Shown here: one piece after another, positions 11,470 through 55,310 of the stretch
Layout: every line of letters starts with the position of its first letter
How positions within the stretch are numbered: position 1 is the first letter of the stretch
DNA from: Acidimicrobiia bacterium
GTDB taxonomy: Bacteria > Actinomycetota > Acidimicrobiia > IMCC26256 > DASPTH01
Length of the DNA: 64,000 nucleotides
Assembly: GCA_036502765.1 (NCBI GenBank)
Contig: DASXXX010000031.1
Span: 56,696-120,695 of the forward strand
Direction of reading: 5' to 3'
Program-made: the position numbers and the translations under genes
Notes under the pieces: generated by a model
Seen by the model: the letters and a program-made list of their open reading frames with translations, nothing else
What the model was told of the DNA's origin: nothing
Database searches by the model: none

Positions 11470-12999
11470 TCAGCTCCAGCTGAGACTCTTGACCTCGGTG
11501 AACGTCTCGAACCCGAGGTGGCCCCACTCGCGGCCGATGCCGCTCTGTTTGAACCCGCCGAACGCACCCGACTGACCGATGCCGGCGGGCGTCGAACCCC
11601 AACCCGGTCCCTGGCCACCACCGGGACCGAGATCGCCTGAGGAGGACGCGCCGACGCCTTGGGCGCTCATCAAACCAGCCCGGATCCGGCGGGCGACATT
11701 GAACGCCCGCGCGGTACTCGCCGCGATGACGCGCCCGCCGAGCCCGTAGATCGAGTCGTTGGCCCGGCGCACCGCGTCGGTGTCGCTGCCCGAGTACGGG
11801 ATCACGGTGAGCACGGGACCGAAGATCTCTTCCTGCGCGATGCGCATGTCGTTGGTGCCGATCAGCACGGTGGGTTCGTAGAAGAAGCCGCGGTCGATGC
11901 CTTCCGGTCGGCGTCCTCCACAGACGAGCTCGGCGCCCTCGGCAATGCCGGCAGCGACCAGTGCTTCCACCTTGGCGCGTTGCTGCTCGCGAATCAGTGG
12001 CCCGAGCGTGGTCGTCGAATCGGTCGGATCACCGATCCGGACGTGAGCGCGCGCTTCCTCCACGCCATCGCGGTACGCGTCGAGCAGGTGCTCGGGGAGC
12101 AGCAGGCGCGTCTGCAGCACACATCCCTGGCCGCAGTGCATCAGCACTTCGCCGAACCCGATCGAGCGTGCGTAGTCCTCGCCGACGTCATCAAGGACCA
12201 CGTGAGCCGACTTGCCGCCGAGCTCGAGGTGCAGCCGCTTCATCGTCTCGGCACCCACGGCCATGATGCTCTTGCCCGTTGCAGTCGAGCCGGTCATCGT
12301 GATCATGTCGACGAGCGGATTCGTCGTGAGCTCCGTGCCGACCGCGACGTGGCCCGTGATCACGTTGAGGACACCCGGGGGCAGATCGGCATCGATCGCC
12401 GCCTGTGCGATCATGAACGCGTCGAGCGGCGTCCACGGGTGCGGTTTCAACACCACGGTGCAGCCGGCGGCAAGCGCAGGCGCGGTCTTGAGCACGTTCA
12501 GCATGAACGGGTAGTTGAACGGCGTGATCGCGCCGACGACGCCGACCGGTTCCCGCAGGATGGCTCGCCCGCTCATCCCCGTGGGTCCGGCGGTGGGCGG
12601 GTCGACCTCCATCCACTCGAAACCCTGCTCCGCGAGCGCCGCATTCGACTCGAACATGCCGATGGCGCCACCTGCCTGCACGTAGTCGGTCAGGACACCC
12701 ACGGTCCCGGTCTCGGCGACCACGAGCTCTCGGAGCTCGGCGGCGCGGGCCGTGAGTGCGTCACCCATGCGGCGCAGCGCGGCGGCGCGTTCCGCCGGCT
12801 TCATCCAGGGCCAGGGGCCTTCGTCGAAGGCAGCGCGTGCGGCAGCGATGGCCCGCGCCGCGTCCTTGGGCGTCGCGTCGGGAACGGAACCGATGACTGC
12901 TTCCGTGGCCGGGTTGAGGACCTCGATCGGCGTGCCGCCGGCTTCGCCCGGATCCCAGGTCCCGTCGATGAAGAGGTCGAAGTCCCATCGTGTGCTCAT
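11470..12999 (-). CDS. NAD(P)-dependent aldehyde dehydrogenase
   Basis: FNYPFMLNVLKTAPALAAGCTVVLKP, ELGGKSAHVV and the catalytic-Cys region MHCGQGCVLQTRLL. Start trimmed to ATG 12999 (MSTRWDFDLFIDG). Confidence 0.9.
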   Translation of the reverse strand: MSTRWDFDLFIDGTWDPGEAGGTPIEVLNPATEAVIGSVPDATPKDAARAIAAARAAFDEGPWPWMKPAERAAALRRMGDALTARAAELRELVVAETGTVGVLTDYVQAGGAIGMFESNAALAEQGFEWMEVDPPTAGPTGMSGRAILREPVGVVGAITPFNYPFMLNVLKTAPALAAGCTVVLKPHPWTPLDAFMIAQAAIDADLPPGVLNVITGHVAVGTELTTNPLVDMITMTGSTATGKSIMAVGAETMKRLHLELGGKSAHVVLDDVGEDYARSIGFGEVLMHCGQGCVLQTRLLLPEHLLDAYRDGVEEARAHVRIGDPTDSTTTLGPLIREQQRAKVEALVAAGIAEGAELVCGGRRPEGIDRGFFYEPTVLIGTNDMRIAQEEIFGPVLTVIPYSGSDTDAVRRANDSIYGLGGRVIAASTARAFNVARRIRAGLMSAQGVGASSSGDLGPGGGQGPGWGSTPAGIGQSGAFGGFKQSGIGREWGHLGFETFTEVKSLSWS

Positions 13000-43907: not shown

Positions 43908-44675
43908 ATGGCACCCAACGCAACGATCACCATCGAGAACGACGGGCCCGTACGGATCGTCTCGCTCAATCGCCCGGACCACGCGAACGCGGTCAACAAC
44001 GCGATGCACAGCAGCTTCGCCCGCATCTGGACGGAGATGCTGGACGACACCGACGCCCGCGCGGTGATGCTCACCGGTACCGGCAACAACTTCAGCGCGG
44101 GTGGCGACCTCGTGGAATGGCTCCACAACTACGTGGAGAACCCGGTGACCCGGCGGGCCGGGATGCGCGACGCCCGGCGGATCGTGCGCGACATGATCGA
44201 CTTCCCGCTCCCGATCGTCGCCGCGGTCAACGGTCCCGCCATCGGCTTCGGGTGCAGCATCGCGGTGCTGTGCGACATCGTGCTCGTCTCGGACCGGGCG
44301 TTCTTCGCCGACACCCATGTCGCCAGCGGAATCGTCGCGGGCGATGGCGGTTCGGTCGCCTGGCCGCTCCTCATGAGCCTGCTCAAGGCCAAGGAGTATC
44401 TGCTCCTGGGGGACCGGATCCCTGCGCAACTCGCCGTCGATCTCGGGCTCGCGAACCGCGTCGTCCCGCACGACGACGTCAAGACCGAGGCGTTGGCGCT
44501 TGCCCACAGACTCGCGGCGCTTCCCGCCCACGCAGTGCAGGACACCAAGCGCGCACTCAACTTGCACGTGCAACGAGCGATCAGCGGCATCCTCGAATAC
44601 GGACTCTCGGCGGAGAGCGAAGCCTTCACGTCGCCCGAGCACCGCGCCGCGATCGACCGGTTTCTCGAACGCTGA
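43908..44675 (+). CDS. Enoyl-CoA hydratase/isomerase (crotonase fold)
   Basis: VRIVSLNRPDHANAV ... VMLTGTGNNFSAGGDL ... PIVAAVNGPAIGFGC. Confidence 0.85.
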   Translation: MAPNATITIENDGPVRIVSLNRPDHANAVNNAMHSSFARIWTEMLDDTDARAVMLTGTGNNFSAGGDLVEWLHNYVENPVTRRAGMRDARRIVRDMIDFPLPIVAAVNGPAIGFGCSIAVLCDIVLVSDRAFFADTHVASGIVAGDGGSVAWPLLMSLLKAKEYLLLGDRIPAQLAVDLGLANRVVPHDDVKTEALALAHRLAALPAHAVQDTKRALNLHVQRAISGILEYGLSAESEAFTSPEHRAAIDRFLER

Positions 44676-44686
44676 TCGACGCCGTC

Positions 44687-44710
44687 GTTCGCGCCGGCGT
44701 TCGCGCCGGC
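44687..44710. repeat. Tandem direct repeat, 2 x 12 bp
   Basis: GTTCGCGCCGGC occurs twice back to back in the 36-nt gap between convergent genes. Confidence 0.6.
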
Positions 44711-44711
44711 G

Positions 44712-46292
44712 TCACAGGATCCGCGTCGGACGATCCGTCCAGTAGCGATCGCGGATCAAGCGCTTGTAGAGCTTGCCGTTGTCACCCCGGGGCAACGTCG
44801 GTGCGAAGTCGACCGCGCGCGGGCACTTGTGGTGAGCGAGTCGATCCCGACACCACGCGACCAGCTCGGCGGCGAGTGGCGCTCCAGCATCATCCCAGTC
44901 GACGGGTTCGACGACCGCCCGCACCTCCTCGCCCATCTCCTCGTGCGGGGTGCCGATGACAGCGACGTCGAGCACCTTCGGATGGGCGACGAGGACGTCC
45001 TCGATTTCCCGGGGGAACACGTTCACTCCGCCGGTCACGATCTTGTGGGTCCACCGGTCGGTGAGGAACAGATAGCCGTCGTGGTCGACGAAGCCGACGT
45101 CGCCGAGTGTCTGCCAACCCCGAGCGTGGGTGATCGCCGCGGTCTGCGCGGGGTCGCCGCGGTAGACGGCCTTCACCGGATGGTCGAACCAGACCGTGCC
45201 CTCGGTCCCGGCCGGGAGCTCGCAGCCGGAGTCGTCGGCGATGTGGATCGTCCCTCGTTGGGCGCGGCCGACCGAGCCTGGATGTTCGAGCCATTCGTCG
45301 GAGGTGATGGTGGTTGCGCCGACGCCTTCGGTGCCCGCGTAGTACTCGTCGAGGATCGGCCCCCACCAGGCGATCATCTGCCGCTTGACCTCCACCGGGC
45401 ACGGCGCGGCACCGTGGAGCACATGCTGCAGGGAGGTCACGTCGTACCGGTCACGAACTGCGCCGGGCAGCTTCAACAGGCGGACGAACATCGTGGGGAC
45501 GACGTGGGTGAACGTGACGCGGTAGTGCTCGATATACCGGAGCATCTCCTCGGCGTCGAAGCGCTCGGTCAGGACCACGGTGCCGCCGAACCGTTGCACC
45601 ATGGTCGAGAAGCCGATCGGGGCGGCGTGGTGCAGCGGACCCACCGTGAGGTGGACGGTCGACGGGCTGAAGCCGTACCGCTCCCCGTAGGAGCGCGCGA
45701 CGTCGTCCAGGGTGCCGGCCGGCGCATCCGGCAACGCCCGCAGCACGCCCTTCGGACGCCCGGAGGTACCGGACGAGAACCACAGCGGAGCACCCTCGCG
45801 CTCGTCGGGGAGGCGGGTCGGCGACATCGTCGCGATCGCGTCGTCCAGTGCCCGCCATCCGGGGAGCAGCGGTTCGAGCGAGAGGTCTCCGGTCGACCTG
45901 ACCGCGAAGCGATGCTCGAGCGCAGGCAGCGCGGCGGCGATTGCATCGCCCAGCGCGAGGAGGCGCGTCGAGCAGATCATGACGGGTGCCGACGCCGAGT
46001 CGACGATCTCGACGGCTTCGCCCGAGGTCAACATCGAGTTGACGAACGTGTAGCGCAGTCCGGAACGGAGCACCGCCCACACGATCTCGTACGCGGTGGG
46101 GTGGTTCTCGATGAGCAACGCGACGGTGTCGCCGGTTCGCAGTCCCACGTCACGCAAGAGACGAGCGATGCGGGTCGAGCGCTCGTCGAGCCGTCGCCAG
46201 GAGATCGCGTCGCCGGTGCGGGCCAGGACCACGGCGGGAGCGAACGGTCGCTCGTCGGCGTAGGTGGCGGGGTAGTAGCGCGGTTCGCTCAC
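44712..46292 (-). CDS. AMP-dependent acyl-CoA synthetase/ligase
   Basis: WFSSGTSGRPKGV, YYAGTEGVG and GDVGFVDHDGYLFLTDRWTHKIVTGGVNVFP. GTG 46292 overlaps the upstream stop (GTGA). Confidence 0.85.
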   Translation of the reverse strand: MSEPRYYPATYADERPFAPAVVLARTGDAISWRRLDERSTRIARLLRDVGLRTGDTVALLIENHPTAYEIVWAVLRSGLRYTFVNSMLTSGEAVEIVDSASAPVMICSTRLLALGDAIAAALPALEHRFAVRSTGDLSLEPLLPGWRALDDAIATMSPTRLPDEREGAPLWFSSGTSGRPKGVLRALPDAPAGTLDDVARSYGERYGFSPSTVHLTVGPLHHAAPIGFSTMVQRFGGTVVLTERFDAEEMLRYIEHYRVTFTHVVPTMFVRLLKLPGAVRDRYDVTSLQHVLHGAAPCPVEVKRQMIAWWGPILDEYYAGTEGVGATTITSDEWLEHPGSVGRAQRGTIHIADDSGCELPAGTEGTVWFDHPVKAVYRGDPAQTAAITHARGWQTLGDVGFVDHDGYLFLTDRWTHKIVTGGVNVFPREIEDVLVAHPKVLDVAVIGTPHEEMGEEVRAVVEPVDWDDAGAPLAAELVAWCRDRLAHHKCPRAVDFAPTLPRGDNGKLYKRLIRDRYWTDRPTRIL

Positions 46293-47236
46293 TCGTCGGC
46301 GTGCCCGAGGACCGCTACGGGCCAGTCGTCGATCGCGACGAGTCGTCCGGTCGACGCCAAGGTGATCACGAGCGCGTGATTCCGAGCATCGAATGCCACG
46401 TTCGTCGTCATCGGATCGTCGAGTGGAAGCGCGGCGAGGAGCTCTCCGGCGGGGGAGAAGACACTGATGCCGCCCGTCCCCAGCGTCGCCACGATGATGC
46501 GACCGTGGTCGTCGACGCAGCAGCCGTCGGCGCCACCGAAGTTCAGTGGACCACCGCTCGGCACGGTGGCGAGCCCTCGCGCGCCCTCGAGCTCGCCGTC
46601 GGCGCCGATGCTGAACTCCCAGACGCGACGGGTGCGCGTCTCCACCACGTAGAGCAGGTCCCCATCCGGTGACAGTGCGACGCCATTGGGCAGCTCGAGG
46701 GGAAACAGCACCTCGCGCAGCCGGAAGTCGGGCGTGCCGTAGAGCACGCCGGTGAGACCGCGTTTGCGGCCATGACCCGCGCCGCTGTCGGTCATCCAGA
46801 ATCCGCCGGTGCGATCGACGCACACGTCGCTGGGCCTTCCGAGCGGAAGCACCGCGCCGTCGCGGGCCACGAACGTGGCGACAGCAGTGTTGACGGTGCC
46901 GTCGGCCTCGACGACCTGGAGCCGCGGCTGCTCCGGAATGTCCGACGGGCCCGACGGGAGCGTCAGTTCCACCGAGCCGGGGAGGTCGAACGGCCAACGC
47001 CGCGCCGCCCAACTCGAGCCGCCGCTCTGGCACACGAGCATCCGACCATCAGGAAGCCGGGCGAGGCCGTTGGGACCGCCGCCCGTCGTCGCGAACGACG
47101 CGCGCGAACCGTCCGGACCGATCCGAGTGATGCAGCCACCAGCCAGCTCGCTGACGAGCACCGAGCCGTCGGCGCACACCACCGGACCCTCAGGGAAGCG
47201 CAGGTCGCGGGCGAGCTCGCGCACCCGCGGGGTCAC
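46289..47236 (-). CDS. SMP-30/gluconolactonase/LRE-like beta-propeller protein (putative lactonase)
   Basis: LRFPEGPVVCADGSVLVSE ... GGGPNGLARLPDGRMLVCQ ... PNGVALSPDGDLLYVVE. GTG 47236 overlaps the upstream stop. Confidence 0.8.
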   Translation of the reverse strand: MTPRVRELARDLRFPEGPVVCADGSVLVSELAGGCITRIGPDGSRASFATTGGGPNGLARLPDGRMLVCQSGGSSWAARRWPFDLPGSVELTLPSGPSDIPEQPRLQVVEADGTVNTAVATFVARDGAVLPLGRPSDVCVDRTGGFWMTDSGAGHGRKRGLTGVLYGTPDFRLREVLFPLELPNGVALSPDGDLLYVVETRTRRVWEFSIGADGELEGARGLATVPSGGPLNFGGADGCCVDDHGRIIVATLGTGGISVFSPAGELLAALPLDDPMTTNVAFDARNHALVITLASTGRLVAIDDWPVAVLGHADE

Positions 47237-47658
47237 GATCCCGACGGTTCCGGTTCGAACAGCAGGAGGTGACGGCCATCTTCGAGCGGCTCCCACGTGG
47301 TCCGGACCCGTTGCCCGACGTGTACGTCGGCGACATCACACCCGACCACGTTGGTCATCAGGCGTGGACCATCGTCGAGATCGACCAACGCCAACGCGTA
47401 GGGCACCATTGCTGTGAGCTCAGGTGCCGGTGCGCGGTGGTGGACGCTCACCGCGTAGACCGTGCCGAGCCCCGACACCTCGTCCCAGTGCAGGTCCTCG
47501 CTGAGGCATCCGGGGCAGAACGCCCGGGGGTACCAGACGAGCGACGCGCAGGCGTCACACCGTTGGAGGACCAGACGCCGTTCTCGAGTGGCATCCCAGA
47601 ACGGCTGGGAGATCTCTGACGGATCCGGCACCGTGCGGGATGCCGCGGCTTCGCTCAT
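47233..47658 (-). CDS. DUF35 OB-fold/zinc-ribbon protein
   Basis: Complete CxxC...CxxC ribbon (LQRCDACASLVWYPRAFCPGC) followed by an OB-fold-like region. ATGA overlap with the upstream stop. Confidence 0.85.
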   Translation of the reverse strand: MSEAAASRTVPDPSEISQPFWDATRERRLVLQRCDACASLVWYPRAFCPGCLSEDLHWDEVSGLGTVYAVSVHHRAPAPELTAMVPYALALVDLDDGPRLMTNVVGCDVADVHVGQRVRTTWEPLEDGRHLLLFEPEPSGS

Positions 47659-48827
47659 CGGACCTCCTCCGTCCCGAGCACCACGGTGGACGTCGCCGAG
47701 AGCACACCTCCGCAGCCGTGCGCGACCGCGGTCCTGGCCCCCTCGACCTGACGCGCGCCGGACTCTCCCCGCAGCTGTCGTACCGCTTCGACGAGGAGGA
47801 ACATCCCGAACGCTCCCGGATGGGTGAACGAAAGGCCGCCACCGGACGTCTGTCCGGGGAGTGCACCTCCGGGACCGAGCCGACCGTCGGCGACGAACGG
47901 CCCTCCTTCACCCTTGGCGCAGAATCCGAGGTCCTCCAACGCGAGGAGCACGGTGATGGTGAACGAGTCGTACAGCTCGACGACGTCGATGTCGCCCGGG
48001 GTGAGCTCGCTCATCGCAAAGGCGCGCGCGCCGGACCGGACGCCGGCGGTCGTGGTGAGGTCCGGCATCTGGCTGATCATGGAGTGCGTGTGGTTGGTCG
48101 CCGCTCCGAGCACCCAGATCGGCGCCTTGGCGCGATCTCGTGCGCGCTTGGCGCTGGTCACCACGATCGCACCCGCGCCATCGGTCACGAGGCAGTACTC
48201 GAGCTTGTGCATCGGCTCGGCCACGAACCCGGATCCGAGGACATCGTCGACCGTGATCGGCTCACGGGCGTAGGCCCGCTCGTTCATCGTCGCCCATCGA
48301 CGAGTGTCCACCGCGATCTGGGCGAGCTCCTCGGGCTTGGTGCCGAACTGCGCCATGTGGCGGTTGGCGGCGAGGCCGTACGCGCCGATGGGCAGGAAGA
48401 TCCCGTAGGGCGTCTCCCACTCGAGGCGTTCGGGGGTGGCGAGTACTCCCATGCCTGCACCGCCACGCTTGCGCGACGACCGCGGCGTGGACGCGTACAC
48501 GATGACCACCGTCTCGCAGAGGCCGGCGGCGATGGCGCTCGCGGCGTGTTCCACGTACAGCTCGTACGAAGCGCCACCGATCTGGGTCGAGTCCGTCCAG
48601 TCGGGCGCGATGCCGAGCTGCTCGGCGAGCTCCACCGAGTGCATGAGCGTCCCGCCGGTGCACATGCACAAGCCGTCGACCTCGGAAGGGGCGATGCCCG
48701 CGTCGGCGAGCGCGGCGCGCACGACTCGAGCCTCGAGGGCACGCAGCGGGAGGTCGATCTCACCGGTTGGTGACACCTCGTCGGCGACACCGACGACGGC
48801 GACCGCGCCGCGCAAGGGATGACTCAT
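47655..48827 (-). CDS. Thiolase-superfamily protein (Ltp/SCP-x-like), nucleophile Cys apparently absent
   Basis: 390 aa with N-terminal AVAVVGVADEVSPTG. The expected nucleophile region reads TQIGGASYELYVEHAASAIAAG. ATGA overlap with the upstream stop. Confidence 0.85.
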   Translation of the reverse strand: MSHPLRGAVAVVGVADEVSPTGEIDLPLRALEARVVRAALADAGIAPSEVDGLCMCTGGTLMHSVELAEQLGIAPDWTDSTQIGGASYELYVEHAASAIAAGLCETVVIVYASTPRSSRKRGGAGMGVLATPERLEWETPYGIFLPIGAYGLAANRHMAQFGTKPEELAQIAVDTRRWATMNERAYAREPITVDDVLGSGFVAEPMHKLEYCLVTDGAGAIVVTSAKRARDRAKAPIWVLGAATNHTHSMISQMPDLTTTAGVRSGARAFAMSELTPGDIDVVELYDSFTITVLLALEDLGFCAKGEGGPFVADGRLGPGGALPGQTSGGGLSFTHPGAFGMFLLVEAVRQLRGESGARQVEGARTAVAHGCGGVLSATSTVVLGTEEVR

Positions 48828-50326
48828 CGGTCGGTCACCGGAACGAACAGCTCCCGCAGACCAGGCTGGCTCACCTTCATGGACGGGGTCCGGGGCAGCG
48901 TGTCCACGACGCGCAACGCGGTCGGGACCTTGTAGCTGGGGAGGCGCTCGCGCAAGAACACAGAGAGGTCTGCTTCCGTGACGTCGGCCCCATGACGCAG
49001 CTCGACCGCGGCGACCGGGACGGCTCCGAGCCGTTCGTCGTCGATGCCGGTGACCCCCGCGTCGAGGACGGCTTCGTGAGACCGCAGGACGTCGACGATC
49101 TCATCGGGGAACACCTTGAACCCGCCTCGCACGATCGCATCGTCGCTGCGCCCTTCGATCCAGAGGAATCCGTCGTCATCGATCCGGGCGACGTCGGTCG
49201 TCCGAATCCATTCGCGACCAGGACTCCGGACTTCGAGCCGGCCGGTGGTCGCTGGTGCCCGCTCTGCTCCGGTCTCGGGATCGACGACGCGCAACTCACG
49301 TCCCGGTTGCGGGCGACCGACACTGCCTCGCTTGGTGGTGCCCCACTCGCGGTGCAGGGGCAGCGTCCATCCGGCAACACCGCCCGCGAACTCGGTTGCG
49401 CCGTACGACGGCAGCACCGCGATGCCGTACCTGGTCTCGAAGTCTTCCTGCACTTCGACCGGGAGCGCGGCGCTCCCTGACGTCACGACCAGGATGCTGC
49501 AGAGATCTTCGGGATCGACGTCGTCATCGAGCACCATCCGCAGCGCGGTCGGGACCAGGCTCACGGCCTTCGGTCGGTGACGGCGCACCAACTCGACGAA
49601 GTCTGCGACGCGGAACCGTTCCAGCAGCGCGATGCGTCGGCCGTCGGTGACGTTCAACAACGTTCGGAAGATGCCGGACATGTGGACGAGTGGCGACGCC
49701 ACGATCGCGACACCCGACCGGAGCCGAGGCGCGTCGTCGCGAGTGCCGTCACTGCTGTAGTGCGCACCGGCGGCGGCGATGGTCCGTTCGAACGACTTGT
49801 ACGACAAGGGCACCCGCTTGGGTGGACCCGTCGTGCCGCTCGTGAGCATCTCGACCGCGATGCCGGGAAGGGCCGCTCGAAAGGAGCCCGAACCCGGACG
49901 CTCGAGACCAGGGATGCTCGAGGCTCCAGCGGGAGTGATGGCGACTGCGACGCCGGCGCTGCCTGTCGCCCGGGCCGCGTCCGCGATCCCGGGGCGGATC
50001 CACTCGTCGGCGCCGCCGATGAGCACGGGCACCGCGAGGTGCCGGATCTCCGCCGCCAACGGCTCGTCGCCCTGATGGGGGTTGATCGTGACGACGCACC
50101 CACCCGCGAGCAACGTTCCGAGCACCGCTCCGATCAACGCGGGGTCGTTGCGGAGGAGCAGACCGATGGGTGAACCGGGTCCGACGCCGCTTCGCTCGAT
50201 GTGCTCGGCGACGCCGAACGCGACCGCGGCGAGATCGGCCCACGAAGACCAGTGACCTTCGAACTCGATCGCACCGGCTTCGGGCTCGAGTGAGAGCACG
50301 GCGCGGATCCGGTCGGCGAGTTCCAC
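48824..50326 (-). CDS. AMP-dependent synthetase/ligase
   Basis: LTSGTTGPPKRV, SYGATEFAG and ARIDDDGFLWIEGRSDDAIVRGGFKVFP, with C-terminal PRTPSMKV. Confidence 0.85.
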   Translation of the reverse strand: MELADRIRAVLSLEPEAGAIEFEGHWSSWADLAAVAFGVAEHIERSGVGPGSPIGLLLRNDPALIGAVLGTLLAGGCVVTINPHQGDEPLAAEIRHLAVPVLIGGADEWIRPGIADAARATGSAGVAVAITPAGASSIPGLERPGSGSFRAALPGIAVEMLTSGTTGPPKRVPLSYKSFERTIAAAGAHYSSDGTRDDAPRLRSGVAIVASPLVHMSGIFRTLLNVTDGRRIALLERFRVADFVELVRRHRPKAVSLVPTALRMVLDDDVDPEDLCSILVVTSGSAALPVEVQEDFETRYGIAVLPSYGATEFAGGVAGWTLPLHREWGTTKRGSVGRPQPGRELRVVDPETGAERAPATTGRLEVRSPGREWIRTTDVARIDDDGFLWIEGRSDDAIVRGGFKVFPDEIVDVLRSHEAVLDAGVTGIDDERLGAVPVAAVELRHGADVTEADLSVFLRERLPSYKVPTALRVVDTLPRTPSMKVSQPGLRELFVPVTDR

Positions 50327-50333
50327 GCGGCAG

Positions 50334-51407
50334 TCAGACCTTCGCCGATTCCAGCTCCGCCACGGCCGGCATCACTTCGCGAGCGAAGAGCTCCATCGAC
50401 GCCCGGACCCGGCTGCGATCCATGGCCCCGCCGCGACTCATGCGCAGCATGAGGTTCTGCCACCCCATGTCGACGATCGTCCCCATCTTCTCGATGACCC
50501 GGTCGGGGCTTCCCATCAGGGTGAGCGGCGCGTCGAGGATCTGCTCGTAGGTCTGCGCGTCGTGGTTGTCGAACCAATCGGCGTAGGCCTTGTAATCGGC
50601 CGGGATCTCTCCGCCGCGCTCGAACGGGTTCGAGTACTGGCGGTGCACCGCGATCGACATCTCGACGCTCTCACGTGGGTACGAGCGGGCGACGGCATCG
50701 TCGGGGTCGAGGAACGCGTTCAAGAGGGCCCAGACCTGATCCGTCGCACGCTCGAGACCACGGTCGGCGCGCGACTTCAGATAGAGGTCGAGACCGGTCG
50801 CGAGATCGACGTCGACCTGGTACGGGTTGCCGATGATGGCGCCGTACCCCGTCTCCGCGAGCCACTCGAAGCTCGACGGGGTCTTCATGACCGTGCACCA
50901 GATCGGGACGGGTTCCTGCACCGGGCGGGGGTGGACGGTGAGGTCGTCCACATGCCAGAACTCGCCGTCGTAGCTGAATCGTTCGTTGCCGAGCAGTCCC
51001 TCGACGATGGTGACGCACTCCTTGTACCGCGCGCTCGCCTCGTCCATCGAGATGCCGAACCCGGCGAACTCGTGCGACTGGTACCCACGCCCGAACCCGG
51101 CGTCGAACCGGCCGCCGCTCAACGCATCGGCCATCGCGATCTGCTCGGCGAGATGGATCGGGTCGTGGAAGGGCGCCACCATGCACGCGGTCCCGATGCG
51201 GATGCGCTCGGTCTGCGCCGCGATCGCGCTCGCGATCAGGGGCAGGTTGGCGAGGGTGCCGTACGCCGAGAAGTGGTGCTCGGCGAGCCAGACCTCGTCG
51301 AACCCGAGCTCCTCTGCCCATCGCGCTTCTTCGAGCACGTTGGCGAGGACCTCCTGGTGGCTCGACTGCGGCGGCTTGTCGCCCAGGATGAAGATGCCGA
51401 ATCTCAC
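50334..51407 (-). CDS. Luciferase-like (LLM-class) flavin- or F420-dependent oxidoreductase/monooxygenase
   Basis: VRFGIFILG... EARWAEELGFDEVWLAEHHFSAYGTLANLPLIASAIAAQTERIRIGTA. Start set to GTG 51407, preceded by AAGGGG. Confidence 0.85.
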   Translation of the reverse strand: MRFGIFILGDKPPQSSHQEVLANVLEEARWAEELGFDEVWLAEHHFSAYGTLANLPLIASAIAAQTERIRIGTACMVAPFHDPIHLAEQIAMADALSGGRFDAGFGRGYQSHEFAGFGISMDEASARYKECVTIVEGLLGNERFSYDGEFWHVDDLTVHPRPVQEPVPIWCTVMKTPSSFEWLAETGYGAIIGNPYQVDVDLATGLDLYLKSRADRGLERATDQVWALLNAFLDPDDAVARSYPRESVEMSIAVHRQYSNPFERGGEIPADYKAYADWFDNHDAQTYEQILDAPLTLMGSPDRVIEKMGTIVDMGWQNLMLRMSRGGAMDRSRVRASMELFAREVMPAVAELESAKV

Positions 51408-51504
51408 GTGGCGACCCCTTCTGATCGATGGCGCGTCTGATCGATCGCGCGGTCGTTCGGTTTCGCCTTGCGGCGACGCCTCACGATACTGCATGATCGG
51501 ACAG

Positions 51505-51514
51505 TTGACGTCAA
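51505..51514. promoter_or_regulatory. Perfect 10-bp palindrome in a divergent intergenic region
   Basis: TTGACGTCAA is flanked by imperfect extensions (ACAG..CTGT). It lies between the LLM gene (start 51407, minus strand) and the MaoC gene (start 51576, plus strand). Confidence 0.35.
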
Positions 51515-51575
51515 TCTGTTCCATCGGGCGACGAGCGTGTTCGTCGCCTGCGCCGGCTCATCAGGAGGCAATCGA

Positions 51576-52037
51576 GTGTCGACACCGATCGTGCTGAGCG
51601 GCCTCGCCGCAGTCCAGGAAGCGAAGGGCCGTCACCTCGGTCACAGCGACTGGCTGGAGATCACCCAGGACCGCGTCGACCAGTTTGCCGACGCCACCGG
51701 CGACCACCAGTGGATCCACGTCGACGTCGAACGGGCGAGGCAGGGACCGTTCGGCGGCACCATCGCCCACGGTTACCTGACGCTCTCGATGGCGAGCTTC
51801 TTCCTGCCTCAGATCGTGCGCTACGAGGGCTTCACCATGGCCGTCAACTACGGCGTCGACAAGGTGCGGTTCCCGGCCCCGGTGCCTGTCGGCGCCCGCA
51901 TCCGGGCCGGTGCCGAGATCACGGAAGTCACCGACGTCGGTACCGGCGTGCAGGTGAAGACGATCGTCACGATCGAGATCGAAGGGAACGAGAAGCCGGC
52001 CTGCGTGATCGAGTCGCTCTCGCGCTGGTTCGCGTGA
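51576..52037 (+). CDS. MaoC-like (R)-specific enoyl-CoA hydratase, hot-dog fold
   Basis: ITQDRVDQFADATGDHQWIHVDVERARQGPFGGTIAHGYLTLS. GTG 51576 lies 7 nt after AGGAGG. Confidence 0.85.
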   Translation: MSTPIVLSGLAAVQEAKGRHLGHSDWLEITQDRVDQFADATGDHQWIHVDVERARQGPFGGTIAHGYLTLSMASFFLPQIVRYEGFTMAVNYGVDKVRFPAPVPVGARIRAGAEITEVTDVGTGVQVKTIVTIEIEGNEKPACVIESLSRWFA

Positions 52038-52053
52038 GCACGAGGGACGACGA

Positions 52054-52803
52054 ATGATCGACGGGCGTGACGGGGTCGCGATCGTGACCGGTGGCGCTCG
52101 AGGCATCGGCGCCGCGATCACGGCGCGGTTCCTCGACGACGGCTACCGCGTGCTCGTCGTCGATGTGAATGCGAAGGCGCTCGCATCGCTGGAGTCGATG
52201 ATCCAAGCCTTTCCCGACCGCCTCGACGCGCGCCAGCTCTCGGTGAGCGACCGCACCGCGGTCGAGGATGCCCTCGGCGATCTCGTTGTCCGCCACGGGG
52301 GCATCGACGCGGTGGTGAACAACGCGGGGATGACGTTGCCGGCGACCTTCCTGGACCAGGACGATGCCGACTGGGACCGCATCGTCGACGTGAACCTCAA
52401 GGGCACCTTCGTCATGGCGCAGGTCGCGGCGCGCCAGATGGTGGAACAGGGTGCGGGATCGATCGTCAACATCAGCTCGGTGTCGGCGCACGGCGTCCGC
52501 ACCGGCCCGCCCGCGTATGCCGCCGCCAAGGCCGGGATCGAGGGACTGTCCCGTCTGATGGCCGTGCAGCTCGGGCCGCTCGGGGTGCGGGTGAACACGA
52601 TCGTCGTGGGGACGACGGCGACTCCCTGGCTGCTCGGGCGCAAGAGCGACGCCGAGCTCGAGGTCATGCGGACGACGACGCTGACCGGACGCCTCGGTGA
52701 GCCCGAGGACGTCGCGGGCATGGCGGCGTTCCTCTGTTCCGACGCGGCCCGCCACCTCACGGGTCAGATGATCTCGGTGTCCGGCGGTCAATGGATGCCG
52801 TGA
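52054..52803 (+). CDS. Short-chain dehydrogenase/reductase (FabG-like)
   Basis: VAIVTGGARGIGAAIT, NNAG and YAAAKAGI. Confidence 0.9.
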   Translation: MIDGRDGVAIVTGGARGIGAAITARFLDDGYRVLVVDVNAKALASLESMIQAFPDRLDARQLSVSDRTAVEDALGDLVVRHGGIDAVVNNAGMTLPATFLDQDDADWDRIVDVNLKGTFVMAQVAARQMVEQGAGSIVNISSVSAHGVRTGPPAYAAAKAGIEGLSRLMAVQLGPLGVRVNTIVVGTTATPWLLGRKSDAELEVMRTTTLTGRLGEPEDVAGMAAFLCSDAARHLTGQMISVSGGQWMP

Positions 52804-52819: not shown

Positions 52820-52847
52820 TAGAACAAGTATTGATACAGTGTTACTG
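52820..52847. promoter_or_regulatory. AT-rich island with an extended -10-like TGATACAGT
   Basis: TAGAACAAGTATTGATACAGTGTTACTG lies in the 84-nt gap before ATG 52888. It shares ACAAGTAT with 2863-2870 and TGATACAGT with 5162-5170. Confidence 0.4.
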
Positions 52848-52887
52848 GCCGTATCGCGGCGCTGACCGTCGTGGGGGAGGAGCACGC

Positions 52888-53655
52888 ATGGACTTCGAGA
52901 CGATCCTGTTCGAGGTGTCCGACCATGTCGCGACGATCACGTTCAATCGGCCCGAGCGCCTGAATGCAACGAACGACACGTCGCGTCGGGAGCTCGGCGA
53001 GGCGTGGGGCATCGTGCGCGACGACCCCGAGATCCGAGTGGCCATCATCACCGGGACGGGCGACCGAGCGTTCTCGGCCGGGCAGGACATCCGCGCCACC
53101 GCCGAGTCCGGCATCCACAACAAGGTTCCTGGTTCGAGGCTCCACCACGGCGTGTGGAAGCCGGTCATCTGCGCGCTCAACGGCATGGTCGTCGGCGGGG
53201 GACTGCATCAAGTCTCGGACTCCGACCTCATCATCGCGGCGGAACACGTGGAGATCCTCGACACCCACTGCGCGGTGGGCAACGTCTTCGCGATGGAACC
53301 GGTCGGGCTCCTTCGGCGGATGCCGCTCTCGATGGTCATGCAGCTCGGGCTGATGACGAAGAGCGGGCGGATCAGTGCACAGCGCGCCTACGACATCGGA
53401 CTCGTCAACGAAGTCGTACCGAAGGAGCGGCTGATGCCGCGTGCACGCGAGATCGCACTCGACATCACCAAGCTCTCGCCCGCGACCGTGCAGGCGTCGA
53501 TCCGGGCGATGTGGACCAGCCTCGATGTCGGGCTCCGCCCCGCGTTCGATGTCGCGTACCGCTACGTCCTCCAGCACCAGCTCAAGCACCCGGACTACCA
53601 CGAAGGGATGCGCGCGTTCGCCGAGAAACGCGAGCCGCAGTGGGTCGTGGAATGA
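52888..53655 (+). CDS. Enoyl-CoA hydratase/isomerase (crotonase fold)
   Basis: VATITFNRPERLNA ... VAIITGTGDRAFSAGQD. GGGAGGAG upstream of the ATG. Confidence 0.85.
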   Translation: MDFETILFEVSDHVATITFNRPERLNATNDTSRRELGEAWGIVRDDPEIRVAIITGTGDRAFSAGQDIRATAESGIHNKVPGSRLHHGVWKPVICALNGMVVGGGLHQVSDSDLIIAAEHVEILDTHCAVGNVFAMEPVGLLRRMPLSMVMQLGLMTKSGRISAQRAYDIGLVNEVVPKERLMPRAREIALDITKLSPATVQASIRAMWTSLDVGLRPAFDVAYRYVLQHQLKHPDYHEGMRAFAEKREPQWVVE

Positions 53656-55310
53656 CCGGCGAGGTCGTGTCGAGCCGGCACTTCGAGCACGGGGAGCTCG
53701 GCTACGACGCCACGGTCCCCCGGATGCTCGAGGCCCTGGTCGCCGCGCACGGCGACAACGACTTCGTGGTGAGCACGACCGCCGACGGCTCGATCGACCG
53801 GGTGACGTACGCAGAGGCGGATGCTCGCTCAACCGAACTGGCCCGCACGTTGTTGGCGCTCGGCGTCGTGAAGGGCTCGCGGATCGGGATCCTGGCACCG
53901 AACGGACCCGACTTCGTGGTCGCATTTCTCGCCGCGACCCGCATCGGCGCGGTGGCGGTGCCGATCAACACGTTCTTCCAGGCGCGCGAAGTCGGTTGGG
54001 TCCTGCGCCACGCCGACATCCACACCGTGATCACCGTCCCCTCGATCCTCGGTCGCGACGTCCTCGATCGACTCGAGGCGAGCGTGCCCGGCCTCGTGGA
54101 CTCCCGCTCGGGCCCGCTGTCCATCCCCAGTACGCCCACGCTGCGCCACGTGGTCACCCTCGGCGTCACCGATCGCCAGTGGGTCACGGTGAGCGGCGAG
54201 CGCGCGAGTGCTGAGCTGCTCGCGTCGATGGAAGCCGCAGTCCGTCCCGCCGACGACCTGGTCGTGATCTACACGTCCGGGAGCACGTCGGATCCGAAAG
54301 GCGTGATCCACGCGCAGGGCACCTTGTTGCGTCACTCGCGGTTCATCGCCGACGGCCACGAGTGGACCGACCGCGACCGGGTGTACGTCCCGATGGCCTT
54401 CTTCTGGGTCGGCGGACTGATCTTCGGTGTGCTCGGCCCGATGCAGATCGGGGTCACCATCCTCACCGAGGAACGCTTCGACGCCGGAGAGGTGTTGCAA
54501 CTCCTGGAGAACGAGCGGGCGACCTACGCGACCGGGTTTCCCCACGTCGGCCCCGCCCTGGAAGCGCACCCACACTTCGCGTCGACTGATCTGTCGACGC
54601 TTCACGGTGGCTACCAGCAGAACCTGGTCGCGCCGGAGTTTCGCTCACCCGATCCGTCGCTCCGCGTCCGCCAACTGGGAATGACGGAGACCTGCAGTTC
54701 GCACACCTGGTGGCCGCCGAACGAGGAGCTCCCGGAGGAGAAGCGCGGATCGCTCGGCGTCACCGCACCCGGGTTCGAGCACAAGATCGTCGACGAGTGC
54801 GGCGCACGCGTCGCGCCGGGGGTTCACGGTGAGATCTGCGTCCGCGGGTGGCCCATGATGCGGGGAATGGTCGGTCGTAGCCGGCACGAGATCTTCGACC
54901 CTGACGGCTGGTACCACACGGGCGATTCCGCGTACTACGACGACGACGGTCACCTCTACTTCTCCGGCCGCCTCGACGACATGATCAAGACGTCAGGCGC
55001 CAACGTCGCGCCCGTCGAGGTCGAGAACGTGTTGTTCGAGATGCCGGAAGTGCGCGAGGCCTACGTCGTCGGAGTGCCTGACGACGACCGCGGCGCGACG
55101 GTCACCGGTGTCGTCGTTCTCCTGCCCGGGGCATCGGTGACCGCCGACGAGCTCGTGCGGCGATGCCGGAAGGTGCTCGCGGTGTACAAGGTCCCGAAGC
55201 GATGGACCATCCTTGCATCGGGTGACCCGCTTCCGTACACGACGACCAACAAGATCGACAAGCGGCGGTTGATCGAGCGGCTCGCCGACGGTGCACTTCC
55301 TGTCGCCTGA
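53652..55310 (+). CDS. AMP-dependent acyl-CoA synthetase/ligase
   Basis: The ATG overlaps the upstream stop (ATGA). IYTSGSTSDPKGVIH, GWYHTGDSAYYDDDGHLYFSGRLDDMIKTSGANV and C-terminal TTTNKIDKR. Confidence 0.9.
   Translation: MTGEVVSSRHFEHGELGYDATVPRMLEALVAAHGDNDFVVSTTADGSIDRVTYAEADARSTELARTLLALGVVKGSRIGILAPNGPDFVVAFLAATRIGAVAVPINTFFQAREVGWVLRHADIHTVITVPSILGRDVLDRLEASVPGLVDSRSGPLSIPSTPTLRHVVTLGVTDRQWVTVSGERASAELLASMEAAVRPADDLVVIYTSGSTSDPKGVIHAQGTLLRHSRFIADGHEWTDRDRVYVPMAFFWVGGLIFGVLGPMQIGVTILTEERFDAGEVLQLLENERATYATGFPHVGPALEAHPHFASTDLSTLHGGYQQNLVAPEFRSPDPSLRVRQLGMTETCSSHTWWPPNEELPEEKRGSLGVTAPGFEHKIVDECGARVAPGVHGEICVRGWPMMRGMVGRSRHEIFDPDGWYHTGDSAYYDDDGHLYFSGRLDDMIKTSGANVAPVEVENVLFEMPEVREAYVVGVPDDDRGATVTGVVVLLPGASVTADELVRRCRKVLAVYKVPKRWTILASGDPLPYTTTNKIDKRRLIERLADGALPVA

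Follow-up and report, generated by a model that had tools for sequence, protein, structure and literature searches.

A predicted genus-specific operon joining a luciferase-like monooxygenase, a Cys-less thiolase-fold protein and a lactonase-like propeller, drawn from an acyl-CoA catabolic island shared with mycobacteria

Two steroid retro-aldolases, Sal-Shy(DUF35) of Comamonas testosteroni (CtSal, 9MYR) and Ltp2-ChsH2(DUF35) of Thermomonospora curvata (TcLtp2, 6OK1), are the closest characterised systems to the thiolase-like pair described here. Both act with a DUF35 protein, fused to the hydratase, and a MaoC hydratase, after α2β2 acyl-CoA dehydrogenases (ACADs). The aldol step of the Sal pathway yields an aldehyde, which then undergoes oxidation and re-ligation to CoA (PMC12329534); Cys304 of Sal is essential and the CtSal C304S variant is inactive. 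[quoted passage not shown] A scheme of P450, side-chain oxidation, type II BVMO and lactonase has already been published for SAR202 (PMC5395668), itself a genomic prediction only; what the camphor and SAR202 cases share with the present genes is a proposed logic in which alicyclic carbon is opened without dioxygenases, through oxygenation of a ketone and then hydrolysis of the lactone. Finally, Rpa3624 of Rhodopseudomonas palustris is a broad-specificity β-propeller lactonase (7RIS/8DJF; PMC9843451).

The window, that is, the whole stretch of 64,000 nucleotides analysed here, stems from an uncultured soil actinobacterium and contains six open, co-oriented minus-strand reading frames at 44712–51407 (Table 1). 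Counted from the LLM gene, their junctions are a 7-nt gap followed by ATGA, ATGA, GTGA and GTGA, just as given in a preliminary description of this DNA, whose domain calls for all six genes were likewise each confirmed by Pfam. Overlaps of four bases are frequent in high-GC operons and thus, by themselves, weak evidence for an operon. Stronger evidence for the tightly coupled operon proposed there comes from four of the 15 other genomes of the genus (G001, G002, G006, and G010), in which the identical six genes recur in the same order and tight packing, so that the entire block is present in five of 16. The six genes form one predicted operon, which is genus-specific and probably assembled from parts of a larger island (see below). 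For LLM, a start at GTG 51407 instead of the upstream ATG 51524 suits the length of its orthologues (357 aa in the named mycobacterial ones and most close matches; some database entries are annotated longer).

Table 1. Features of the operon and its flanks (positions in the window).
Feature	Position	Strand	Basis
LLM, luciferase-like (class C flavin) monooxygenase, 357 aa, first gene	50334..51407	-	start GTG; PF00296 E 3.5e-63
AMPlig2, divergent AMP-forming (ANL) acyl-CoA ligase, 500 aa	48824..50326	-	start GTG; PF00501+PF13193
Thl, Cys-less SCP2-type thiolase-fold protein, 390 aa; probable retro-aldolase	47655..48827	-	start ATG; PF22691
DUF35 protein, free-standing, Cys4 zinc ribbon + OB fold, 141 aa	47233..47658	-	start ATG; PF12172 E 7e-14 + PF01796 E 4e-21
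SGL, SMP-30/gluconolactonase-fold six-bladed propeller, 315 aa; probable lactone/ester hydrolase, apparently derived metal site	46289..47236	-	start GTG; PF08450 E 8e-36
FadD4-like acyl-CoA synthetase, 526 aa, last gene	44712..46292	-	start GTG; PF00501+PF13193
Promoter-like block upstream of LLM: TTGACG (51509-51514), 17 nt, CAnTAT (51486-51491)	51483..51519	-	alignment of 12 upstream regions
Window-specific 16-bp duplication in LLM 5' leader, yielding a 10-bp direct repeat	51420..51445		leader alignment
GC-rich hairpin, 8-bp stem, between convergent FadD4-like and crotonase genes; possible terminator	44692..44711	-	fold energy
MaoC-type (R)-hydratase, divergently transcribed	51576..52037	+	PF01575 E 6e-28; AGGAGG before GTG 51576
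SDR	52054-52803	+	Pfam
Crotonase	52831-53655	+	Pfam
Third acyl-CoA ligase, ATGA overlap with crotonase gene	53652-55310	+	Pfam

Upstream regions from five MAGs of this genus and seven mycobacteria scarcely align outside the 37-bp promoter-like block, which holds 23 of the 24 invariant columns. A strict consensus promoter scan did not detect this TTGACG-17-CAnTAT block; judging from its retention in both lineages, the LLM gene heads a predicted transcription unit. On the opposite strand, the MaoC-type hydratase is probably the supplier of β-hydroxyacyl-CoA, and its gene likewise faces LLM in the three mycobacterial loci checked (L030, L034, and the overlap of the latter in G041, L106), there in a double hot-dog form. 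The SDR, crotonase and third ligase genes (start codons checked) constitute a conserved unit opposite the LLM operon, with mycobacterial orthologues of 69–73%, 78–82% and 62–65% identity, respectively, in the same arrangement.

The operon represents a rearranged part of a large island, presumably for degrading fat-like compounds, which this bacterium shares with some environmental mycobacteria. This acyl-CoA catabolic island spans roughly 40–45 kb, is patchily distributed and was probably transferred laterally; its neighbouring genes in both lineages encode ACADs, crotonases, SDRs, CoA-transferases, a TesB-type thioesterase and TetR regulators, and an α/β ACAD pair is part of it. LLM orthologues with 69–74% identity occur in many Mycobacterium species, where the conserved operon comprises LLM-ligase-Thl-DUF35 without SGL and ends with a SnoaL_2 gene. 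In one mycobacterium (G041), LLM is separated from ligase-Thl-DUF35, with SnoaL_2 staying beside LLM. The mycobacterial SGL lies 15–35 kb from LLM in the same orientation, behind P450-ECH-SDR, and the two genes are non-adjacent in 12 of 13 sampled island-bearing species as well as in the mycobacterial loci examined. Since SGL is not found beside LLM outside this genus, gene order is no evidence that the substrate of SGL is the product of LLM. That both belong to one island follows from their perfect co-occurrence in 201 sampled Mycobacterium species (both orthologues in 13, neither in 188), a pattern that could merely reflect inheritance of a single island, and related genomes do not count as independent observations.

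Thl belongs to NCBIfam NF004811 (478 bits, cut-off 421). Its closest structure is the uncharacterised 4U4E (E 3.5e-110), neither of the two aldolases, and its nearest characterised relatives are CtSal (E 1e-54) and TcLtp2 (E 4e-52). Three motifs are identical in the window and 15 orthologues, namely GGAS with Gly at the nucleophile position, YDSF in place of HDCF/YDHF/YDCY, and THPG. With Gly replacing the nucleophilic Cys, which is absent from every orthologue examined, Thl is unable to form an acyl-enzyme; a thiolase assignment was thus rejected, and the C–C-cleaving chain shortening previously ascribed to this protein is excluded as a thiolytic reaction. Like Sal and Ltp2, Thl has an SCP2-thiolase fold in which Gly replaces the nucleophilic Cys, keeps the Tyr of Y-D-x-F/Y, and is paired with a DUF35 protein bearing a Cys4 zinc ribbon (CxxC...CxxC in the translation); MaoC hydratase and α/β ACAD genes are close by. 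It departs from them in carrying YDSF and not YDHF or YDCY, with Ser in place of Sal Cys304 and His (THPG) where Ltp2 has its second Tyr, and in having DUF35 as a separate protein, whose gene in related loci always comes after Thl. A standard Ltp2 or Sal aldolase was rejected on account of YDSF and THPG. As far as can be judged from these motifs, Thl and its DUF35 partner most likely form a retro-aldolase whose active site is of a third type. A flavin monooxygenase here occupies the place of Sad, the aldehyde dehydrogenase of the Sal pathway: no ALDH match was found within about 35 kb in the window, and all Pfam-scanned ORFs in the scanned part of the M. paraffinicum flank belong to non-ALDH families.

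The nearest structures of LLM, aligned over its full length and collinear over about 350 residues, are LuxA of E. salina (8CBB, E 4.5e-40), RslO1 (E 1.8e-36) and LuxA of V. harveyi (1BRL, E 6e-29). His44, His45 and Arg107 of LuxA are retained. Unlike in the LuxA system, luxB and luxCDE are missing and Cys106 is Gly, which speaks for a catabolic setting rather than a luciferase. The best FMN-type PDB match scores 141 bits vs 67 bits for the best F420-type one, so that of the two cofactors left open in the preliminary description FMN is favoured, and LLM is more likely an FMN-type oxygenase than an F420 reductase. Its suggested identity as a type II Baeyer–Villiger enzyme is not supported, known members being only distantly related, with marginal similarity to the camphor enzymes (3,6-DKCMO, E 2.6e-8, partial, about 90 residues).

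The lactonase kinship proposed for the SMP-30 protein is upheld, as its nearest characterised relative (and nearest PDB entry) is Rpa3624, a true lactonase for hydrophobic lactones (E 5e-44 over residues 4–305). Both share the six-bladed fold with a full-length match, conserved Glu15 and Asn172 ligands and catalytic Asp229 (E16, N184 and D237 kept in SGL), and a subclade preferring hydrophobic, non-sugar lactones. Relative to Rpa3624, Asn123 is replaced by Ser (S136) and Ser230 by Gly (G238) in all operon- or island-linked SGL orthologues examined, changes that are absent from non-syntenic relatives; by alignment, two of the lactonase's five Ca ligands are altered in this clade. Unlike Rpa3624, SGL, a predicted hydrolase, lies within an acyl-CoA catabolic island.

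The route that we infer from these genes, including each catalytic step, the step order, cofactor and substrate, is tentative, and we give it somewhat less than an even chance: within a genus-specific operon from the shared island, retro-aldol cleavage would release a carbonyl, a flavin enzyme would oxygenate it, and hydrolysis of an ester or lactone would be followed by CoA re-activation. Its core module would comprise LLM, AMPlig2, the Cys-less Thl and DUF35, facing the MaoC hydratase, the presumed substrate being a bulky carboxylic acid of branched or alicyclic structure. The island's α/β ACADs would generate an enoyl-CoA side chain to be hydrated by MaoC, whereupon Thl/DUF35 may cleave a free aldehyde or ketone off the β-hydroxyacyl-CoA, leaving a short acyl-CoA, with the Tyr of YDSF as putative base and the His of THPG stabilising the enolate. 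The LuxA-like LLM, probably FMNH2-dependent, could then oxygenate this carbonyl via a flavin C4a-peroxide (aldehyde to acid, or ketone to ester/lactone), any ester or lactone would be hydrolysed by the SGL propeller, and the two ligases would return the acids to the CoA pool for further β-oxidation. That the genes just upstream of the aldolase-like pair encode a ligase and a LuxA-like oxygenase recalls aldehyde oxidation and CoA re-ligation in the Sal route. Counting against this pathway are a Thl active site matching neither characterised aldolase type, the epoxidases and hydroxylases within the LuxA/RslO1 subgroup together with the mycobacterial coupling of LLM to a SnoaL-like gene, an F420-making genome with an island devoid of a flavin reductase, the split in G041, a ligase missing from one locus (L038), and the two changed SGL Ca ligands.

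In the linear route of the preliminary description, LLM converts a ketone into a lactone, SGL opens it, a ligase activates the hydroxy-acid and Thl shortens the chain. All required families are in the gene set, the closest relative of SGL is a genuine lactonase, the co-occurrence of LLM with SGL is perfect, the island holds only a marginal KshA_C match, and the same scheme is in print for SAR202 (PMC5395668); we nevertheless consider this route unlikely, given the missing thiolase Cys, the remoteness of LLM from a known type II BVMO, and the mycobacterial SGL that follows P450-ECH-SDR away from LLM. LLM might also act as an epoxidase or hydroxylase like RslO1 and MsnO8 on an enoyl or α,β-unsaturated carbonyl compound, its product being processed by an NTF2/SnoaL-like protein or the propeller. 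This would suit RslO1, the second-best structural relative, which forms an epoxide, and the SnoaL_2 gene that accompanies LLM in mycobacteria, even in G041. However, the window's own SnoaL gene is of a different Pfam family and 5 kb off, its genome has no SnoaL_2 orthologue at E 1e-20, and the best overall match of LLM is LuxA, all of which makes this option decidedly unlikely.

We regard it as very improbable that LLM is an F420-dependent reductase or alcohol/hemiacetal dehydrogenase that inserts no oxygen, with SGL hydrolysing a lactone from lactol dehydrogenation. The bit scores of F420-type structures and the retained His44/His45/Arg107 constellation speak against it, and no F420 NCBIfam model reaches its cut-off, even though an F420 family is the second-best match (127 bits), the host genome encodes F420 synthesis, as both host lineages can, and no flavin reductase gene lies within the island. 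Also in favour of this reading, both neighbouring SDRs match FabG and sugar 1-dehydrogenase models best (below cut-offs), a class that makes lactones for SGL enzymes. A biosynthetic operon, whose adenylating enzyme and MupA-like LLM would act in tailoring a secondary metabolite, is hardly conceivable: the top NCBIfam match of LLM is indeed the MupA/Atu3671 natural-product family (134 bits, cut-off 244), but no PKS, NRPS or carrier-protein gene is close by, and the neighbours in both lineages are the catabolic families listed above.

As for the ligases, AMPlig2 displays the motifs TSGTTGPPK, YGATE, TTD and GRSDD and a C-terminal Lys; no NCBIfam model exceeds its cut-off and no PDB chain is better than 1e-40. 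It adjoins Thl-DUF35 in most mycobacterial loci reaching that far (60–63% identity), L038 excepted. The last synthetase matches the FadD4 model best (564 bits, below the cut-off of 850); behind SGL its gene occurs in this genus alone, and none turned up in the stretches of mycobacterial DNA that were examined. Downstream of it, the hairpin has a fold energy of -21.5 kcal/mol and a z-score of only -1.5 vs shuffles, weakly suggestive of a terminator. The LLM leader, by comparison with the single-copy orthologous leaders of G001 and G002, carries 16 extra bases in the window (leader alignment A2).

The six minus-strand frames within 44712-51407 are free of internal stops, the G+C content of the window being 66-70 %, and the junctions read from the sequence are those the preliminary description had reported: a 7-nt gap, then ATGA, ATGA, GTGA and GTGA. 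Its six family names were likewise borne out, each being matched by Pfam. For the gene of the luciferase-like monooxygenase (LLM), the GTG at 51407 rather than an upstream ATG is taken as the start, since 357 residues is the length of the named mycobacterial orthologues and of most close matches. Both ligases show ANL features (PF00501 and PF13193, that is, an AMP-binding core and a C-terminal domain with the catalytic Lys), with CoA as the putative acceptor. As stop and start codons often overlap in high-GC genomes, conservation of the arrangement was examined. Close orthologues (64-81 % identity) of the SMP-30/gluconolactonase-like propeller (SGL) occur in 4 of 15 other genomes of the genus, and all four retain the six-gene order with equally tight packing; MaoC, SDR, crotonase, ligase, crotonase and TetR genes border the operon on one side, and crotonase, SDR and P450 genes and an alpha/beta acyl-CoA dehydrogenase (ACAD) pair on the other. 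At the loci of three congeneric metagenome-assembled genomes (L014 of G010, L012 of G001 and L011 of G002), several orthologues fall into two to three adjacent tblastn pieces in different frames, most likely owing to assembly indel errors in these few-contig long-read MAGs rather than to pseudogenes. A hairpin 3' of the last gene is no better than shuffles (z -1.5). The one sequencing run listed as containing the operon is of soil-metagenome DNA, possibly from the source sample, and no RNA run is listed.

Genes of the six-gene operon, in order of transcription
Gene	Position in the window	Strand	Remark
LLM	50334-51407	-	GTG start
AMP-ligase (AMPlig2)	48824-50326	-	Pfam family confirmed
Thiolase-like protein (Thl)	47655-48827	-	Pfam family confirmed
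DUF35	47233-47658	-	Pfam family confirmed
SMP-30/gluconolactonase-like propeller (SGL)	46289-47236	-	Pfam family confirmed
FadD4-like ligase	44712-46292	-	Pfam family confirmed

Many environmental mycobacteria carry an LLM orthologue (69-74 % identity), in every case annotated under a generic name only; among them are M. gordonae, M. paraffinicum, M. mantenii, M. scrofulaceum, M. shimoidei, Mycolicibacterium gadium, M. moriokaense, and M. rhodesiae NBB3. In loci long enough to show the gene order, MaoC (double hot-dog), TetR, SDR, crotonase (78-82 % identity), a third acyl-CoA ligase (ligase 3) and ACAD lie on one side and face LLM, AMPlig2 (61-63 %), Thl (73-78 %), DUF35 and a SnoaL-like gene, with neither SGL nor the FadD4-like ligase within the LLM operon. 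In the same genomes, SGL orthologues (57-62 % identity) are found 15-35 kb downstream of LLM and co-oriented with it. In the two loci examined most closely they stand behind a run of P450, crotonase and SDR genes; nearby are orthologues of the window P450 (67-68 %), the ACAD pair (49-55 % and 75 %), the crotonase at 43908-44675 (77-81 %) and the CoA-transferase pair with its bare OB protein. In the Mycobacterium genome G041, ligase, Thl, DUF35, crotonase and SGL form one run, and the LLM gene is found 10 kb off beside SnoaL. The six-gene operon thus represents a lineage-specific way in which a 40-45 kb island is arranged. A beta-lactamase-fold hydrolase had been considered as the mycobacterial substitute for SGL and was dropped, as SGL orthologues lie 15-35 kb away in every island-bearing genome. 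Two M. paraffinicum loci show additions of their own: at L030 (14122-18007), DUF35 is followed by genes for a SnoaL_2 protein, a beta-lactamase-fold serine hydrolase and a fused alpha-beta E1 (thiamine-diphosphate) dehydrogenase, none of which has a close orthologue in the MAG, and at L113 (8183-11032), a HAMP-adenylate cyclase gene comes after the SGL orthologue, which faces a gene of Amidohydro_2 (PF04909), a family that also contains lactonases.

Most island genes in the window segment 33939-58609 have mycobacterial orthologues at 48-82 % identity (loci L030, L113, L114, L115, and L034/L106 of G041), and the counterpart is a single rearranged island of about 40-45 kb. The shared content comprises the CoA-transferase pair, the bare OB protein, the ACAD pair, the P450, SDRs, crotonases, three ligases, TetR and a DUF427-thioesterase. 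As a baseline between the MAG and mycobacteria, two non-island genes gave 44-45 % (CofD) and 49-51 % identity (CofH domain), the MAG having yielded neither rpoB nor gyrB; the island proteins compared with them reach 51-82 %. This difference, together with the patchy distribution, points to probable lateral transfer. Among 201 evenly sampled Mycobacterium species, LLM orthologues (E below 1e-120) occur in 13 and SGL orthologues (E below 1e-90) also in 13, and these are the same 13 genomes. The count, made on related and hence not independent genomes and on two genes of one island, shows joint gain and loss and not consecutive reactions.

An alignment of the 130 bp upstream of the LLM start, made from 12 genomes that represent both lineages, concentrates 23 of its 24 invariant columns in a 37-bp block at 51483-51519, which reads TTGACG, 17 nt, CAnTAT; the remaining upstream region barely aligns. 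A strict sigma-70 scan returned no promoter here, and the block emerged from the comparative alignment. Its conservation supports the view that a transcription unit begins with the LLM gene, the block being its putative promoter. In the 'TTGACGTCAA palindrome', TTGACG is the -35-like hexamer kept in the 12 genomes of the two lineages, and the palindromic extension is not conserved. A 10-bp direct repeat in the LLM leader (51420-51445) belongs to a 16-bp duplication found only in this genome. On the opposite strand, the longest MaoC frame (TTG 51468) would overlap the conserved LLM promoter; the most likely start is GTG 51576, behind AGGAGG, which would leave a divergent control region of 168 bp. 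For ligase 3, ATG 53652 is the most probable start; it overlaps the crotonase stop (ATGA, 53652-53655), so that the divergent unit is also translationally coupled.

The best solved relatives of the LLM, all matched over the full length, are LuxA of Enhygromyxa salina (8CBB, E 4.5e-40), RslO1 (7BIP, E 1.8e-36) and LuxA of Vibrio harveyi (E 6e-29). The protein is a PF00296 barrel that keeps His44, His45 and Arg107 of LuxA and carries Gly for Cys106, these positions being invariant or nearly so in 13 homologues; the features of a LuxA-subgroup class C flavin monooxygenase are thus present, and no NCBIfam model reaches its cut-off. Scores of up to 141 bits against FMN-type structures, versus at most 67 bits against F420-dependent Mer enzymes, suggest that an FMNH2-dependent oxygenase is the more likely assignment. 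A bacterial luciferase proper is excluded, as neither a LuxB partner nor luxCDE is found in the operon or its conserved flanks. [quoted passage not shown] The earlier remark that the family includes type II BVMOs holds at the level of the superfamily only.

The thiolase-like protein passes the NCBIfam subfamily model NF004811 (478 bits versus a cut-off of 421). Among solved structures, the uncharacterised 4U4E is closest (E 3.5e-110), followed by the steroid retro-aldolases CtSal (9MYR, E 1e-54) and TcLtp2 (6OK1, E 4e-52). In residue-level alignments, the position of the thiolase nucleophile is occupied by Gly (I/T-G-G-A-S), YDSF stands where thiolases and aldolases have HDCF, YDHF or YDCY, and the His of a thiolase-like THPG aligns with Tyr344 of Ltp2 and Gln352 of Sal. 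GGAS, YDSF and THPG do not vary among the window protein and 15 orthologues drawn from both lineages; the Cys of GCGG is not conserved, being Thr in the mycobacterial orthologues. The acid/base Cys of thiolases resides in HDCF in SCP2 thiolases and in CxGGG in classical ones. With Gly for the nucleophilic Cys and YDSF devoid of the acid/base Cys, a thiolase of degradative or SCP2 type is ruled out. Both retro-aldolase types were weighed as well: catalysis relies on Tyr294 (in YDHF) and Tyr344 in Ltp2 and on Tyr302 and Cys304 in Sal, the C304S variant of CtSal being inactive (PMC12329534). The first Tyr is kept in Thl, but an Ltp2-type steroid aldolase is excluded by Ser for the oxyanion His296 and the THPG His for Tyr344, and a Sal-type bile-acid aldolase by Ser for the essential Cys304 (YDCY). 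What Thl retains is the catalytic-base Tyr, the Gly, and a DUF35 partner with a Cys4 ribbon, from which we infer a putative retro-aldolase of a third active-site type. DUF35 itself consists of a Cys4 zinc ribbon (four Cys present) and an OB fold (PF12172 and PF01796), and its gene shares an ATGA overlap with that of Thl, as would befit a putative partner like those in DUF35-assisted thiolase-fold complexes.

Among characterised proteins, Rpa3624 of Rhodopseudomonas palustris comes closest to SGL (PF08450), at E 5e-44 over residues 4-305. This lactonase depends on Ca and acts preferentially on hydrophobic lactones; E15, N123, N172, D229 and S230 are its ligands, and D229 is catalytic (PMC9843451). 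Glu15, Asn172 and the catalytic Asp229 are kept as E16, N184 and D237, and two Ca ligands are changed (N123 to Ser136, S230 to Gly238). The resulting motifs RPSD and ADG are common to all five island-linked orthologues examined (four of the genus, one from Mycobacterium), while seven of eight non-syntenic relatives of the same order keep PND and FDS, and the eighth (locus L022) keeps the Asn with Gly at the second position. Judged by these motifs, the island-linked proteins form a distinct clade. Since metal coordination in XylC and LRE is of another kind, the octahedral sphere being completed by waters (PMC9843451), a putative hydrolase function of SGL is plausible.

The nearest precedents for the island are the Sal and Ltp2 pathways, in which an alpha2beta2 ACAD and a MaoC hydratase precede a DUF35-assisted retro-aldolase; all these parts are present here. 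The Sal route goes on to oxidise the aldehyde product and religate it to CoA (PMC12329534). Directly upstream of the aldolase-like Thl/DUF35 pair lie the LuxA-like oxygenase and a ligase, and the sole aldehyde dehydrogenase match in the window, at about 11659-12942 (minus strand), is about 35 kb from the operon. For these reasons we tentatively favour, as a real possibility that still falls short of probable, a route of predicted steps in which hydration would be followed by retro-aldol cleavage and the released carbonyl would undergo flavin-peroxide oxygenation (aldehyde to acid, or ketone to ester or lactone); SGL would hydrolyse any ester or lactone so formed, and the ligases would reactivate the acids. 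A far-reaching version is distinctly doubtful, namely an undescribed, dioxygenase-free dismantling of bulky or alicyclic carboxylic acids, in which a Cys-less thiolase-fold aldolase of a third type (Tyr/Ser/His, free DUF35 partner) would release a carbonyl, the LuxA-like monooxygenase would oxygenate it in place of the aldehyde dehydrogenase of the bile-acid pathway, a lactonase clade with a remodelled metal site would complete the route, and the whole 40-45 kb unit would have moved with its promoter between soil actinobacteria of different classes.

The linear route of the preliminary description, in which BVMO, lactonase, ligase and thiolase act in turn, has the enzymes right, but its C-C cleavage by thiolysis is excluded by the missing nucleophilic Cys in Thl and its 15 orthologues, and its hand-off from LLM to SGL lacks gene-order support outside the genus, with the two genes 15-35 kb apart in mycobacteria; it is accordingly quite unlikely. 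Other roles of the LLM also appear less likely than the favoured oxygenation of a released carbonyl, be it as an epoxidase or hydroxylase, epoxide formation being the function of RslO1 in rishirilide biosynthesis, or as an F420 oxidoreductase. The MAG encodes F420 biosynthesis (cofD, cofH/fbiC) along with four flavin reductases, none of the latter in this contig region, and genome content is therefore non-discriminating for the cofactor. A biosynthetic operon is likewise less likely and was rejected, as there is no PKS, NRPS or carrier-protein gene nearby. Of the steroid 9,10-seco pathway, the 85 %-complete MAG yields only a marginal KshA_C match (25 bits).

Each of the six proteins can be assigned to a known family, and the operon does not represent a novel type of system. 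For SAR202, a scheme of P450, side-chain oxidation, LLM-type BVMO and lactonase is already in print, as a prediction from genomes (PMC5395668); our literature search on the present gene set, in mycobacteria or elsewhere, found no paper. The YDSF/THPG thiolase-fold enzyme sets the operon apart, as do a lactonase clade in which two ligands are changed and the occurrence of a LuxA-like oxygenase within a catabolic island that depends on CoA. This conserved, experimentally untouched island is present in cultivable non-tuberculous mycobacteria such as M. gordonae, M. paraffinicum, M. mantenii and M. rhodesiae NBB3, and the pathway of an uncultured soil actinobacterium therefore becomes testable in the laboratory. 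As a putative third active-site variant in a small group of thiolase-fold aldolases, YDSF/THPG is of interest for steroid biocatalysis, and a LuxA-like oxygenase encoded beside an aldolase and a ligase points to a concrete, testable physiological role for the many orphan 'alkanal monooxygenase' annotations in actinobacteria.

Among the neighbours of the operon, ten proteins scanned with NCBIfam models gave none above any curated cut-off, and the PDB neighbours of the window P450 were uninformative. Elsewhere in the MAG, on contig C291 (457-927), there is a further MaoC gene that shares 74.5 % identity with the one opposite the LLM gene.
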